A stretch of DNA of 12,361 nt from Patescibacteria group bacterium (GTDB taxonomy: Bacteria; Patescibacteriota; Minisyncoccia; Phycocordibacterales; UBA1550): positions 1 through 12,361 of the forward strand of contig JBBTZQ010000006.1 of assembly GCA_038061275.1 (NCBI GenBank), written 5' to 3'. The notes under the pieces were generated by a model that had not been told where the DNA came from, did not search any database, and worked only from the letters and a program-made list of their open reading frames with translations. A program made the position numbers and the translations under genes. How positions within the stretch are numbered: the stretch's first letter is position 1; every line of letters starts with the position of its first letter. Shown piece by piece: positions 688 through 5,951 of the stretch.

Positions 688-760
688 GGGCGATTAGCTC
701 AGTTGGTAGAGCAATTCATTTACACTGAAAAGGTCGGGGGTTCGAGCCCCTCATCGCCCA
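688..760 (+). tRNA. tRNA-Val (anticodon TAC), 73 nt, CCA not encoded
   Basis: Manual cloverleaf: acceptor GGGCGAT/ATCGCCC, D-arm GCTC-AGTTGGTA-GAGC, anticodon loop TTTACAC, T-arm GGGGG-TTCGAGC-CCCTC, discriminator A760, followed by CAA. Confidence 0.95.
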
Positions 761-809
761 CAATAAAAAAGAACGCACTAGGGCGTTCTTTTTTATTGTG
801 GGCGATGAG
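750..809 (+). terminator. Perfect 27-bp inverted repeat (750-776 / 783-809, loop actagg) whose left arm includes the last 11 nt of tRNA-Val; the inner part looks like a rho-independent terminator
   Basis: ctcatcgcccacaataaaaaagaacgc is exactly complementary to gcgttcttttttattgtgggcgatgag. The T-tract 789-794 lies inside the right arm. Confidence 0.7.
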
Positions 810-829
810 CAAGCAAACTGCTTTGCTTG
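810..829 (+). repeat. Small hairpin H1 (caagcaaa-ctgc-tttgcttg) inserted inside the inverted copy of the tRNA-Val 3' end
   Basis: 8-bp stem 810-817/822-829 with loop ctgc. It splits tgggcgatgag (799-809) from ggggctcgaa (834-843); together these are the reverse complement of tRNA positions 741-760. Homologous hairpins occur at 4457-4478 and 5918-5945. Confidence 0.75.
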
Positions 830-833
830 CGTA

Positions 834-956
834 GGGGCTCGAAAGGCGCAACTATATCGAGCGGAGCGAGATGGTGAGCTGGGGTCGAGAACACTTAGGC
901 TTTTGTGAACGAAGTGAAACAAAAGACTTAGTGATTCGTGACCGAGCCCGCCCACA
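834..956 (+). ncRNA. Copy V of the tRNA-linked structured module (candidate ncRNA or hairpin-type mobile element), bracketed by inverted and direct tRNA-Val T-loop/3'-end fragments
   Basis: Left bracket ggggctcgaa (834-843) is the reverse complement of tRNA 741-750. Right bracket cgagccc-gcccaca (943-956) is a copy of tRNA 743-762 lacking 6 nt. Internal helices are 845-847/878-880, 849-859/867-876 and 884-906/919-942. They match the architecture of the copies at 4296-4390 and 4658-4752, with compensatory changes. Confidence 0.45.
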
Positions 957-1085
957 AACATTAGACATGGATGCGAGAGCATCGGTGTCTTTTTGTTTGT
1001 GTGTGCGATGAGGGGCTCGAAGGACGGACGATTCCACAGAATCGCGTCGCGTACTGTCGATTAAAACGCGACGAGTATACAAGAT
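942..1085 (+). repeat. Second, partly truncated repeat unit downstream of tRNA-Val
   Basis: Components in order:
- direct tRNA-end fragment 942-956
- hairpin 963-990 (agaca/tgtct and gatgc/gcatc, loop gaga) followed by T-tract 990-994
- tgtgtgcgatgaggggctcgaa (1000-1021), matching the reverse complement of the tRNA-Val 3' end at 21/22 positions
- ggacgga (1022-1028) and gtatacaaga (1075-1084), which match the start of the Leu-locus module but are interrupted by hairpins 1029-1044 and 1045-1073. Confidence 0.6.
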
Positions 1086-3900: not shown

Positions 3901-4057
3901 ATACCATCCCCAACTAACCTCTTCGCATTGGCTCAAAAATATCGGCTGCGACTTTGAGAAAAATCTTTAGCGTATCTCGATATGCTTCATATTTTCCTCT
4001 TCGTCTCGCTCGAAATTTTTGAGCCAATTACGCGAAGGACTTAATTGGGGATGGTAT
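3901..4057 (+). repeat. 157-nt long imperfect inverted repeat (about 37 bp of stem) directly after the rplS stop and before its terminator; MITE-like or a structured 3' UTR
   Basis: Arms 3901-3940 and 4015-4057: ataccatccccaa...ggctcaaaaat versus atttttgagcc...ttggggatggtat. There are a few mismatches and a 3-nt bulge (4029-4031). A nested inner hairpin is at 3956-3964/3991-3999. Confidence 0.75.
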
Positions 4058-4143: not shown

Positions 4144-4227
4144 GCCCAGGTGGCGAAATTGGTAGACGTACTACCTTGAGGTGGTAGCGCCCGCAAGGGC
4201 ATGGAGGTTCAAGTCCTCTCCTGGGCA
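4144..4227 (+). tRNA. tRNA-Leu (anticodon GAG), class II with long variable arm, 84 nt, CCA not encoded
   Basis: Acceptor GCCCAGG/CCTGGGC, anticodon arm CTACC-TTGAGGT-GGTAG, variable arm GCCC-GCAA-GGGC, T-arm GGAGG-TTCAAGT-CCTCT, discriminator A4227, followed by CAA. Confidence 0.95.
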
Positions 4228-4234
4228 CAAAATG

Positions 4235-4266
4235 AAAGGCGGAACGCGAAAAGCGTTCCGCCTTTT
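4235..4266 (+). terminator. Terminator-like hairpin T1; core of a longer imperfect hairpin (4208-4295) that pairs the tRNA-Leu T-loop/3' end with an inverted copy
   Basis: ggcggaacgc (4238-4247) / gcgttccgcc (4253-4262), loop gaaaa, flanked by aaa/tttt. Outer pairing runs 4208-4232 with 4270-4295, with two mismatches, one bulge and one G.U. Confidence 0.7.
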
Positions 4267-4276
4267 GAATTTTGTA

Positions 4277-4411
4277 GCACAGGGGAGGACTCGAAGGGCG
4301 CAGGCGGTATACAAGAAGAGCGAAGCGAGTGCTTGTCGCCGAGCCGGGGCCGAAAGTACTTAGGAGCGTAGCGACTTAGTAACTTGTGGCAAAGTCCTCT
4401 CCTGGGCACCA
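4277..4411 (+). ncRNA. Copy A1 of the tRNA-linked structured module, closed by a helix between an inverted (4277-4291) and a direct (4393-4407) copy of the tRNA-Leu 3' end, ending ACCA
   Basis: The core 4296-4390 is 83/95 identical to 4658-4752 with no gaps. Helices are 4297-4299/4343-4345, 4303-4306/4337-4340 plus 4311-4315/4332-4336, and 4349-4363/4375-4390. Segment 4393-4408 is 16/16 identical to tRNA 4212-4227. Confidence 0.5.
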
Positions 4412-4455
4412 TATAAAAAAGCTTCCGAAAGGGGGCTTTTTTATATGGTGCCCAG
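4402..4455 (+). terminator. Hairpin T2: 25-bp stem (two U.G pairs on the + strand), GAAA loop; the inner part is a canonical terminator with T6
   Basis: 4402-4426 pairs with 4431-4455. The inner stem gcttcc/gggggc is followed by tttttt (4437-4442). The outer arms are a tRNA-Leu 3' fragment plus CCA and its complement. Confidence 0.65.
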
Positions 4456-4493
4456 AGCGAATGAACTGCTTCATTCGCGCGAGAGGACTTGAA
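4446..4493 (+). repeat. Inverted copy of the tRNA-Leu 3' end split by small hairpin H2 (4457-4478)
   Basis: tgcccag (4449-4455) and gagaggacttgaa (4481-4493) together are the exact reverse complement of tRNA 4208-4227. They are interrupted by gcgaatgaa-ctgc-ttcattcgc. Confidence 0.8.
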
Positions 4494-4561
4494 GAGGTTG
4501 AGTATGTTTTTGAAAATGTAACCATTTGAAAAAATGCGAAACCTGTACCGAATCTGTAAGA

Positions 4562-4636
4562 TTCAAGATTCCTCTCCTGAGTTCAACACCAAAAACAAAG
4601 AAGCCGAACGCGAAAGCGTTCGGCTTCTTTGTTTTT
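4562..4636 (+). repeat. Degenerate direct tRNA-Leu 3'-end fragment (4562-4590) plus hairpin T3 (perfect 21-bp stem 4591-4611/4616-4636, GAAA loop)
   Basis: ttcaagattcctctcctgagttcaacacc resembles ttcaagtcctctcctgggcaca. aaaaacaaagaagccgaacgc is exactly complementary to gcgttcggcttctttgttttt. Confidence 0.75.
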
Positions 4637-4637
4637 G

Positions 4638-4770
4638 TGCCCAGGAGAGGACTTGAAAGACGGAGGCGGTATACAAGACGAGCAAAGCGAGTGCTTGTCG
4701 CCGAGTCGGGGTCGAGAGTACTTATGAGCGTAGCGAATTAGTAACTCGTGACCAAGTCCTTCGCATGCTC
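4638..4770 (+). ncRNA. Copy A2 of the tRNA-linked structured module, preceded by a perfect inverted copy of the tRNA-Leu T-loop-to-discriminator and followed by a degenerate direct copy
   Basis: 4638-4657 tgcccaggagaggacttgaa is the 20/20 reverse complement of tRNA 4208-4227. The core 4658-4752 aligns to A1. The right bracket ccaagtccttcgcatgctc (4752-4770) is decayed. Confidence 0.5.
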
Positions 4771-4815
4771 AACAAAAGTTGCCGAACGCAAAAGCGTTCG
4801 GCGACTTTTGTTTTT
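4771..4815 (+). terminator. Hairpin T4 (19-bp stem with one U.G, AAAA loop) followed by T-tract
   Basis: aacaaaagttgccgaacgc (4771-4789) / gcgttcggcgacttttgtt (4794-4812), then ttt. The core ccgaacgc/gcgttcgg is shared with T1 and T3. Confidence 0.7.
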
Positions 4816-5786: not shown

Positions 5787-5859
5787 GGTGGCTATGGTGT
5801 AACGGTTAACACTAGAGCTTGTGGAGCTCTCAATCAGGGTTCGATTCCCTGTAGCCACC
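5787..5859 (+). tRNA. tRNA-His (anticodon GTG) with genome-encoded G-1 and C73, CCA not encoded
   Basis: G-1 (5787) pairs with C73 (5859). Acceptor GTGGCTA/TAGCCAC, anticodon arm AGAGC-TTGTGGA-GCTCT, T-arm CAGGG-TTCGATT-CCCTG. Confidence 0.95.
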
Positions 5860-5866
5860 CAAGAAC

Positions 5867-5900
5867 AAAAAAGACCAGCATTGGAATGCCGGTCTTTTTT
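5867..5900. terminator. Bidirectional rho-independent terminator between tRNA-His (+) and the small membrane protein gene (-)
   Basis: aaaaaagaccagcatt-gg-aatgccggtctttttt, with A6/T6 on both sides. The single A x C mismatch on the + strand becomes G.U on the - strand. Confidence 0.75.
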
Positions 5901-5917
5901 GTGCTCTCTTCGGGGGT

Positions 5918-5945
5918 GGAGCAAGCAAGCTATTTTGCTCGCTTC
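5918..5945 (+). repeat. Small hairpin H3, homologous to H1 downstream of tRNA-Val
   Basis: gagcaagcaa (5919-5928) is identical to 807-816. The stem is 5918-5928/5935-5945 with one mismatch. It is preceded by gggggtgg (5912-5919), which mirrors the tRNA-His acceptor end ccaccc. Confidence 0.6.
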
Positions 5946-5951
5946 GTATCA

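Follow-up and report, generated by a model that had tools for sequence, protein, structure and literature searches.

The cassettes found behind the tRNA genes of Patescibacteria (the candidate phyla radiation, CPR) look like an undescribed kind of non-coding gene cassette. We analysed a CPR chromosome segment of 12,361 nucleotides (nt) (hereafter the window; contig JBBTZQ010000006.1 of assembly GCA_038061275.1), in which tRNA-Val (688-761), tRNA-Leu (4144-4228) and tRNA-His (5788-5860) lie among housekeeping genes. Our focus is positions 741-1085, the 3' end of the tRNA-Val gene and the DNA behind it, which we tentatively read as a docking site in a system of small non-coding cassettes that extends across Patescibacteria. 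The site has a fixed order: the gene 3' end (X), a terminator hairpin (T1), an inverted copy of the gene end (X', often split by an accessory hairpin, H), a folded cargo, a direct copy of the gene end (X''), and the next terminator. Comparison with loci and contigs from other genomes (numbered with the prefix L) showed that the cassettes are placed after gene terminators, that their arms are copied from the local gene end, that several cargo families occupy them, that they form arrays, and that they have been both gained and lost.

The tRNA genes were called by ARAGORN and the Rfam tRNA model, the latter giving 68 bits to tRNA-Val (anticodon TAC; all features below are likewise on the plus strand). 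The segment from T54 to the 3' end including the trailer (X, 741-764) is the template of the arms. It is followed by the terminator-like hairpin T1 (762-797), the palindrome of which (inverted repeat I4, arms 750-779 and 780-809, 97% complementary) continues at its two ends into the tRNA end and into X', respectively. The inverted arm is contiguous with this palindrome and its sole interruption is the 24-nt hairpin H (808-831; AG-stem-CTGC-stem-CG), which divides the arm at the boundary between acceptor and T-stem. Upstream of H, X'a (798-807, gtgggcgatg), recognised by sequence and by a three-way comparison, is an inverted copy of the acceptor 3' strand, the discriminator and the trailer, and prolongs the inverted copy so that the arm spans T54 through the 3' end and trailer. 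Downstream of H, X'b (832-843) is an inverted copy of the T-stem 3' strand and T-loop, forms the 5' strand of stem P1 and holds ggggctcgaa (834-843). An earlier reading of this DNA from its letters (the sequence-only reading) had described 834-843 as the reverse complement of 741-750 and 943-956 as a direct copy of the tRNA end, and had overlooked X'a; we found the former to be exact, and the latter (cgagccc/gcccaca) to be 743-761 copied directly with a deletion of 6 nt. Indeed, TTCGAGCCCC is present once in tRNA-Val (741-750) and inverted at 834-843 and 1012-1021, giving three matches against 0.03 expected. Between the arms lies a family-1 cargo module (844-943), a three-way junction supported by covariation, fold energy and covariance model R1 (match at 831-953; 107 bits, E = 2.6e-25). 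X'' (943-956), a direct copy of the tRNA tail from C56, forms the 3' strand of P1, and a second terminator-like hairpin, T2 (957-997, with a terminator-like site at 970-983), comes next. T2 is homologous to the first hairpin in L122, where the same two terminators stand in the reverse order. Behind T2, a second inverted copy of the tRNA-Val tail (gtgtgtgcgatgaggggctcgaa, 999-1021; inverted repeat I2) precedes a second slot (1022-1080), the cargo of which is degenerate or unclassified and was missed by the covariance model.

The family-1 core was searched with a 22-nt degenerate pattern in contigs from one genome per species, and all counts refer to the matches listed. We found it at at least 118 loci, nearly all from Saccharibacteria, from Paceibacteria/Parcubacteria lineages or from unclassified CPR metagenome-assembled genomes. 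Placement was counted over 129 core-pattern matches among those listed: 91 have a tRNA on the same strand ending no more than 250 nt upstream, with any isotype serving, 13 more lie 250-800 nt downstream of a tRNA in arrays, and most of the others are cut by locus edges. No cassette was oriented opposite to its adjoining gene. In a convergent Arg/Val tRNA pair, where the cassette is attached to one partner or the other depending on the genome, the cassette orientation follows the tRNA that is matched by the arms. Three family-1 copies are linked to tmRNA (L015, L069, and L107), one follows rpsI, and three are linked to ftsZ (L016, L070, and L112, from Saccharibacteria, a UBA3466 genome, and Kaiserbacteria). 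At ftsZ the module is situated behind the stop codon and ahead of the terminator, and its arms copy the conserved C-terminal coding end, that is, the codons of the conserved C-terminal peptide (…DDWGAVPAFLRRSKLK). In some relatives (L129, L134) nearly every tRNA bears a cassette. A hairpin stands 5' of the module in 93 of 104 copies, at a modal distance of 14 nt to P2, and has a CTGC loop in 33 of the 93. A single local segmental duplication, which the sequence-only reading had regarded as fatal to its idea, is ruled out by recurrence of the pattern in more than 100 genomes. The sole match under a non-CPR label, three family-1 copies behind tRNA-Trp on a contig labelled Patiriisocius sp. (L014, JBLHQB010000003.1), probably comes from a mis-binned Patescibacteria contig.

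Arms copied from the local gene end

Arm statistics were obtained for the 91 tRNA-linked copies. An exact match of at least 10 nt to the local tRNA tail was found in 41 of the 91 inverted arms and in 41 of the 91 direct arms, whereas the same test with the tails of other tRNAs gave 1.3% and 0.2%, respectively. The statement of the sequence-only reading that the brackets of the module track the adjoining tRNA from T54 to the discriminator thus stands for many copies, but not as a tRNA-specific rule, since the ends of tmRNA, ftsZ and rpsI are copied too. Its extent also holds only in part: in about half of the tRNA-linked copies, which form a second type, the duplication is limited to the final 4-5 nt of the tRNA and ~7 nt of trailer. 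In the tRNA-Leu locus of the window, the tail 17-mer AAGTCCTCTCCTGGGCA is found at 4211 (tRNA), at 4392 (direct copy) and at 4638-4654 (inverted copy), three matches against 0.01 expected. A chance origin of the arms is ruled out by this excess, by that of 3 over 0.03 at tRNA-Val, and by recurrence of the pattern elsewhere.

The direct repeat starts at C56 and the tRNAs stay intact. Where the arms are perfect (young copies), this repeat reaches no further than 1-2 nt past the tRNA 3' end and is succeeded by an unrelated hairpin terminator. The cassettes therefore have the attachment-type (att) repeat of tRNA elements that use a tyrosine integrase, namely a repeated gene end with the gene restored. 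The sequence-only reading had dismissed integrase att logic, and this has to be withdrawn: the direct copy is att-like, its start lies in the T-loop or 3'-terminally, and in young copies it runs as far as the tRNA end. Its view that the module is not an ordinary miniature inverted-repeat transposable element (MITE) was borne out, since the termini vary from locus to locus with the local gene, which they match; MITEs have constant termini of their own and a short target duplication of fixed length, whereas the direct duplications here span 19 to 93 nt. The direct repeat also takes in the terminator in L004 (76 nt, perfect), in L018 (47 nt, perfect), in L120/L121 and in L111. In L018, an X' with mismatches stands beside the perfect direct repeat.

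We then compared the three copies (X, X', and X'') in 42 alignable loci, and found that 635 positions were identical in all three, 67 were changed in X'' only, 65 were changed in X' only, and 2 had compensatory changes. The changes are mostly transversions or pair-breaking and are concentrated in the acceptor part, and the arm positions adjoining the module (8-10) are better kept. Because the changes are one-sided and uncompensated, the arms must have been faithful copies of the gene end at birth that later decayed independently of each other, save for the 10-12 bp that adjoin the cargo, with only a short P1 being retained. Thus, the arms are copies made at installation. A maintained mimic of a tRNA minihelix is ruled out by 2 compensatory against 132 one-sided changes. 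The uncompensated decay likewise speaks against any device that depends on the whole anti-3'-end segment, and it weakens, for the acceptor part, the suggestion of the sequence-only reading that this segment pairs either with the real tRNA end or with a downstream decoy.

Folded cargo modules

A core shared by the tRNA-Val and tRNA-Leu loci had been noticed in the sequence-only reading, and model R1 confirmed it with matches at 831-953, 4283-4401 (74 bits) and 4645-4763 (85 bits). In an alignment of 67 family-1 copies, the module folds into a three-way junction in which P1 is built from the arms. The P2/P3 arm has a conserved GGAG/CGA internal loop followed by a GGGG junction, and a bulged A and a U.U mismatch interrupt the long P4/P5 arm. 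Double (compensatory) changes were found in 21 of the 30 pairs; one P2 pair, for example, is GC in 24 copies, CG in 23, AU in 17 and UA in 2. Paired cells amount to 94.1%, compared with 30-38% when the partners are slid, and the covariation score is 0.479 against at most 0.095 in the slid controls, with none of 500 shuffles reaching the observed values. Orthologous copies linked to ftsZ differ through compensatory stem changes, and R1 also matches divergent variants with whole helices swapped in the relatives L129, L134, L218 and L219. One G.U pair is invariant in family 1, and in all three copies of the window the sense strand (that of the tRNA) folds better than the antisense strand by ~10 kcal/mol (-48.2 against -38.2 kcal/mol at tRNA-Val). 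The better fold and the invariant G.U pair together indicate that the sense strand is the functional strand. Covariation beyond the controls and strand asymmetry, the general marks of a structured non-coding RNA, are thus both present in family 1. The cargo is the portion of the cassette under selection, kept in family 1 by compensatory changes and read on the tRNA-sense strand.

Family 1 is not alone in its slot. Among tRNAs without a family-1 module, an inverted arm of at least 9 nt was found in 31%, compared with 3% in controls; behind the majority of these arms lie another kind of folded module and then X''. At least three further unrelated folded modules use the slot of family 1: family 2 (GGGGTCGGGGAA…GTGGAGGAA…), with six of six occurrences behind tRNAs; family 3 (…GTACTGR-nnn-TGTAA-nnn…), with 16 of 26 behind tRNAs; and a fourth family with three occurrences. 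Mixed arrays of differing cargo families are common, with X''-T-X' palindromes separating the cassettes inside them, and L218 has a near-identical tandem unit. A universal palindrome-cargo-palindrome formula was rejected, as a terminal inverted copy was found in only 17% of arrays. Behind tRNA-Val in L133 (~1150-1175), the inverted arm runs straight into the direct arm with no cargo (CGGGATTCGAATCCCG), leaving an empty hairpin slot that has the palindromic T-loop sequence TTCGAA at its centre.

When the window and the other-cargo loci were scanned with Rfam 15 at gathering and permissive thresholds, only tRNA and tmRNA passed. For the cargo modules, Rfam 15 at E ≤ 1-10 gave nothing beyond hairpin-like chance matches and no ribozyme family, and we found no description of the module or the cassette in the literature. 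By eye, and as leads only, we compared the module with the consensus sequences of the kink-turn, hammerhead, 5S loop-E and retron RNAs, and none fitted. The small junction-centred fold and the heterogeneous arrays may be likened to self-cleaving ribozymes, as a resemblance only. In many copies the tips of P3 and P5 are hairpins, very often GCGAAGC, GCGTAGC or GCGGAGC, which are GNA triloops (e.g. window 866-872, 4343-4349, and 4374-4380). The DNA mini-hairpin d(GCGAAGC) is exceptionally stable, and such tips could hint at a single-stranded DNA phase.

Origin and function of the cassettes

The rplS-tRNA-Leu region was compared among relatives with 85-90% identical L19. L119 and L122 have an empty site behind tRNA-Leu, the window, L120, L121, L214 and L217 a filled one, and L129, L134, L218 and L219 one with variant cargo and tandem duplicates. 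L141 has another empty allele, in which the terminator palindrome reaches into the tRNA end and the downstream flank is as in L120. Presence at this orthologous tRNA locus, a comparison that the sequence-only reading had proposed, varies among relatives.

We rated small integrative or repeated cassettes at tRNA genes as the nearest known kind. Integrative elements at tRNA and tmRNA genes, together with derivatives that have lost the integrase, such as cis-mobilizable elements (CIMEs) and accretion arrays, likewise have tRNA and tmRNA genes and conserved protein genes as targets, in their 3' portions, repeat the segment from the T-loop (or the 3' end) to the gene end while leaving the gene intact, and stack in tandem. 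Unlike them, the cassettes are only 150-250 bp long, have no integrase in or near the element, add an inverted copy of the att segment, and carry a folded non-coding module as payload. Integron attC arrays are similar in that their cassettes are set apart by imperfect palindromes with variable centres and extra-helical branches. However, the palindrome arms here are sequence of the neighbouring gene (such as TTCGA/TCGAA of the T-loop) and not R'/R'' (RYYYAAC/GTTRRRY) or dif, there is no IntI gene nearby, there are no cassette open reading frames (ORFs), and a terminal palindrome is a minority feature of the arrays, as noted above. The direct-inverted-direct order of X, X' and X'' is also that of the forked-hairpin attP of CTX phage, an integrative mobile element exploiting Xer (IMEX), the prophage of which has an inverted att-like pair ~90 nt apart at one end and a direct copy at the other.

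Three other groups share some features. Repetitive extragenic palindromes (REP) and their bacterial interspersed mosaic elements (BIME), Correia elements, other intergenic hairpin repeats and MITEs resemble the cassettes in that they lie behind genes, form hairpins, are short and non-coding, and have many copies in a genome, but they have constant terminal repeats of their own, whereas here the termini are target-templated and the constant part is internal with a conserved junction. Group IIC introns and hairpin-inserting insertion sequences (e.g. IS1397 in REP loops) also lie directly 3' of a terminator hairpin and can have flanking inverted repeats derived from a palindromic target; in contrast, the module is ~100 nt long, has neither intron domains nor an ORF, and is accompanied by a long direct copy of the gene end. 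As in tRNA-like domains (that of tmRNA, bacterial YrlA, and mascRNA), the newborn P1 corresponds to an acceptor/T-arm stack in which the module replaces the T-loop, with H where the D and anticodon arms would emerge, but the acceptor part is not maintained and many copies have arms that are not tRNA-like.

On balance we lean, with reserve, towards small non-autonomous cassettes that are installed at gene 3' ends by att-like, hairpin-mediated recombination and are read as RNA through the terminator. In this process, a cassette would be installed by site-specific recombination, either in the T-loop (C56) or at the very 3' end of a conserved gene (tRNA, tmRNA, or the tail of ftsZ), and would bring a replacement 3' end (X) and its own terminator, the displaced original end becoming X''. 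X' would allow the att segment of the cassette to fold into a duplex hairpin, like integron attC or CTX-phage attP, and an array would grow by repeated docking at one site. The recombinase, a hypothetical enzyme, would act in trans. The cargo would probably be expressed as read-through RNA, with propagation of the cassette or RNA 3'-end processing as candidate roles. Integrases classically act at these sublocations, the T-loop and the 3' end, and integrative elements classically target tmRNA and the ends of conserved genes. The distribution of the loci, the integrative-type targets, the start of the repeat at C56, its stop at the tRNA end, the empty and filled alleles, the mixed arrays, the decay of the arms and the selection on the cargo are all consistent with such recombination and give it provisional preference.

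Several observations weigh on the other side. No recombinase, reverse transcriptase or transposase recurs among 535 clustered ORFs within 3 kb of 121 loci, for which reason the enzyme is hypothetical, and no excised form or junction was seen. In IMG/VR viral contigs, three patterns gave no matches, or chance matches without model support or tRNA context; together with a core identity among copies of at most 0.91 (median 0.70), this absence gives no sign of recent mobility. A recent transposition burst is likewise ruled out, as no core pair exceeds 91% identity. A change of target is not easy for an element that brings its own X, but the cassettes sit at more than 20 tRNA types, with an X' that matches the acceptor sequence found locally. 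The repeats that include the terminator (L004, L018, L120, and L121) fit local duplication better than an imported att site, and the continuity of the inverted arm with the terminator palindrome is explained more directly by fold-back copying. A mobile origin and an RNA-level function of the cargo can both be true, and the alternatives discussed below are not mutually exclusive.

A somewhat less probable alternative is that the module is a host RNA element, a functional 3' extension co-transcribed with the upstream gene that serves as a processing ribozyme, a 3'-end stabiliser or a read-through small RNA. In a variant that we regard as equally doubtful, the arms would provide tRNA-like ends for RNase P, RNase Z or the CCA-adding enzyme, or would switch between the real end and a decoy. 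Such a role would account for the strict sense-strand orientation, the long-term compensatory evolution, the better fold of the sense strand, the copies at nearly every tRNA in L129 and L134, and the lack of mobile-element genes within 3 kb of the 121 loci. No sigma-70-like promoter lies between T1 and the cargo and a terminator follows X'', and the position of the ftsZ module is that of an element of the 3' untranslated region. The heterogeneous tandem arrays also speak for a host RNA, since small folded RNAs in such an arrangement are reminiscent of self-cleaving ribozyme clusters. However, the acceptor part of P1 decays without compensation, so that a tRNA-like minihelix is not maintained, and the arms are not tRNA-like in half of the copies and in those at ftsZ and rpsI. 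In addition, the tRNA is separated from the cargo by a terminator, close relatives differ in whether they have the cassette, and the exact copying of the local gene end is left unexplained.

A bolder form of the recombination model, which we consider speculative and rather unlikely, is an RNA-cassette integron anchored on tRNA genes, that is, a programmable docking system with new ribozyme-like cargo. In such a system the target-derived hairpin may be the recombination substrate, and the arm of 12-14 nt between H and the cargo may be a guide-like specificity segment. The four or more cargo families may be new functional RNAs, possibly new classes of self-cleaving ribozymes, and the cargo RNAs may arise by read-through from tRNA genes and serve to set or process the 3' ends of RNAs in CPR bacteria.

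Fold-back copying or template switching is, as a full account, improbable. A polymerase, either the replicative one or a reverse transcriptase on terminated transcripts, would snap back at the terminator hairpin, write X' and re-copy X; by the same unlikely scheme, cargo would then spread between slots through recombination at the shared T-loop sequence. The sequence-only reading had listed a template switch at the terminator palindrome among its explanations, and for the inverted arm this survives as a partial one. X' is continuous with the terminator palindrome, with arms of up to 30 nt at 97-100%, and the empty alleles in L119 and L141 already have terminator palindromes that extend 6-11 nt into the tRNA end. 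The terminator is included in the repeats of L004, L018, L120 and T3/T4 of the window, L133 has the X'-X'' palindrome without cargo, and the architecture is identical at the ends of protein genes. On the other hand, young direct repeats end at the tRNA 3' end, T2 is unrelated to T1, the imperfect X' of L018 stands beside a perfect direct repeat, and neither the arrival of the cargo nor its strict orientation is accounted for.

A hairpin element of the REP type with its RAYT transposase, or of the IS200/IS605 type, with an HUH nuclease aimed at tRNA 3' ends as the sequence-only reading had suggested, is very improbable: the cassettes are hairpin-rich, intergenic and post-genic, and the conserved CTG-containing hairpin loop could conceivably serve as a nick or priming site, but the arms are locus-specific with no conserved terminal hairpins or tetranucleotide guides of their own, H is found in only about a third of copies, TnpA, RAYT and TnpB do not recur in the 3-kb neighbourhoods of the 121 loci, and these families are not known to duplicate their target.

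Patescibacteria account for a large share of bacterial diversity and have tiny genomes, and their non-coding RNA biology is almost uncharacterised. In some of their genomes, a large fraction of the tRNA genes is joined by conserved folded modules that are absent from Rfam, of which there are at least four. If the cassettes are mobile, they exemplify terminal repeats that are built from the target itself and the movement of RNA genes in cassette form. As host RNAs, they would point to a so far unrecognised step in how the 3' ends of tRNA, tmRNA and mRNA are metabolised. On both readings, the modules are candidates for new ribozymes or RNA-protein systems.

tRNA-Leu, tRNA-His and neighbouring features of the window

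Behind tRNA-Leu (anticodon GAG, 4144-4228; X = 4208-4228) lies an array of three units with two kinds of cargo. An intrinsic-terminator-like T1 (4229-4273; stem 4233-4267, 15 pairs, T-run) is followed by a slightly decayed inverted tail copy X'(1) (4274-4295), family-1 cargo copy 1 (4296-4390), and a perfect direct tail copy X''(1) (4391-4410; direct repeat D4). The second unit consists of T2 (4411-4446), X'a (4447-4455), an H with a CTGC loop (4456-4479), and X'b (4480-4493), with inverted repeat I11 (21/21) for this stretch (4411-4493), and then of a cargo of a different family (4494-4562), which by comparison with the family-3 consensus is family-3-like (...AACCTGTACCGA-ATC-TGTAA-GAT), and a decayed X''(2) (4563-4585). 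The third unit has T3 (4590-4637), an X'(3) that is perfect over 20 nt (4638-4657; inverted repeats I5 and I10 for this part of the array, 4563-4657), family-1 cargo copy 2 (4658-4753), which is 87% identical to copy 1, and a strongly decayed X''(3) (4754-4771), before T4 (4772-4811), a paralogue of T3 (repeats D2 and I18). The X'' copies fade with distance from tRNA-Leu, from 100% to 70% and then further.

In the tail of tRNA-His (5862-5946), a terminator is followed by 8 nt that repeat the tRNA end in inverted orientation (5912-5919) and by an H-like hairpin (5920-5946), and cargo is missing. L129 carries a full cassette at tRNA-His, and the tail in the window may be a remnant or an unfilled slot.

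In the rplS-tRNA-Leu region, a 157-nt imperfect palindrome (3901-4057) lies between the rplS stop codon and the terminator, with outer arms of 26 nt (85%) and inner arms of 50 nt (74%). The spacer after rplS is far shorter in relatives such as L120 and L214, and the palindrome looks like a separate hairpin insertion. L214 and L216 have identical rplS and tRNA-Leu 5' parts but different T-arm and acceptor 3' strands. In L216, a contig of 1.4 kb, the acceptor stem would be mismatched, and this contig may be an assembly chimera or may hold a recombinant tRNA 3' end.

The recurrent neighbour families that were identified around the cassettes are housekeeping; FtsZ was confirmed by Pfam, and others, among them the CCA-adding enzyme and MiaA, were recognised by eye. 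LAGLIDADG-like ORFs were seen near cassette-bearing tRNA genes at three loci (L038, 2857-3528, and two others) with no evident link to them.

Contigs from Hainich groundwater metagenomes encode an L19 that is 100% identical to that of the window over the shorter called product. The strain-level contigs L210-L213, from one and the same population, are identical save for a scaffold gap at an X'/cargo boundary and contig ends inside the tRNA-Leu tail. The gap, in L212, begins exactly at the second-slot cargo after tRNA-Val (equivalent to window ~1022), and L211 and L212 end within the equivalent of window ~4214-4224. Repeats, or genuine heterogeneity of cargo content, disturb assembly at cassette-bearing tRNA genes, and the cassettes thus also explain assembly breaks at tRNA genes in Patescibacteria genomes.

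Directly 5' of tRNA-Val, the window has two tandem 38-nt repeats (611-686), each with a diverged copy of about the first 23 nt of the tRNA (AGGGCGATTAGCTGTCTTGGTAG...). The tRNA-Val 5' end and its upstream spacer are therefore triplicated, and L212 has small indels in this repeat region.

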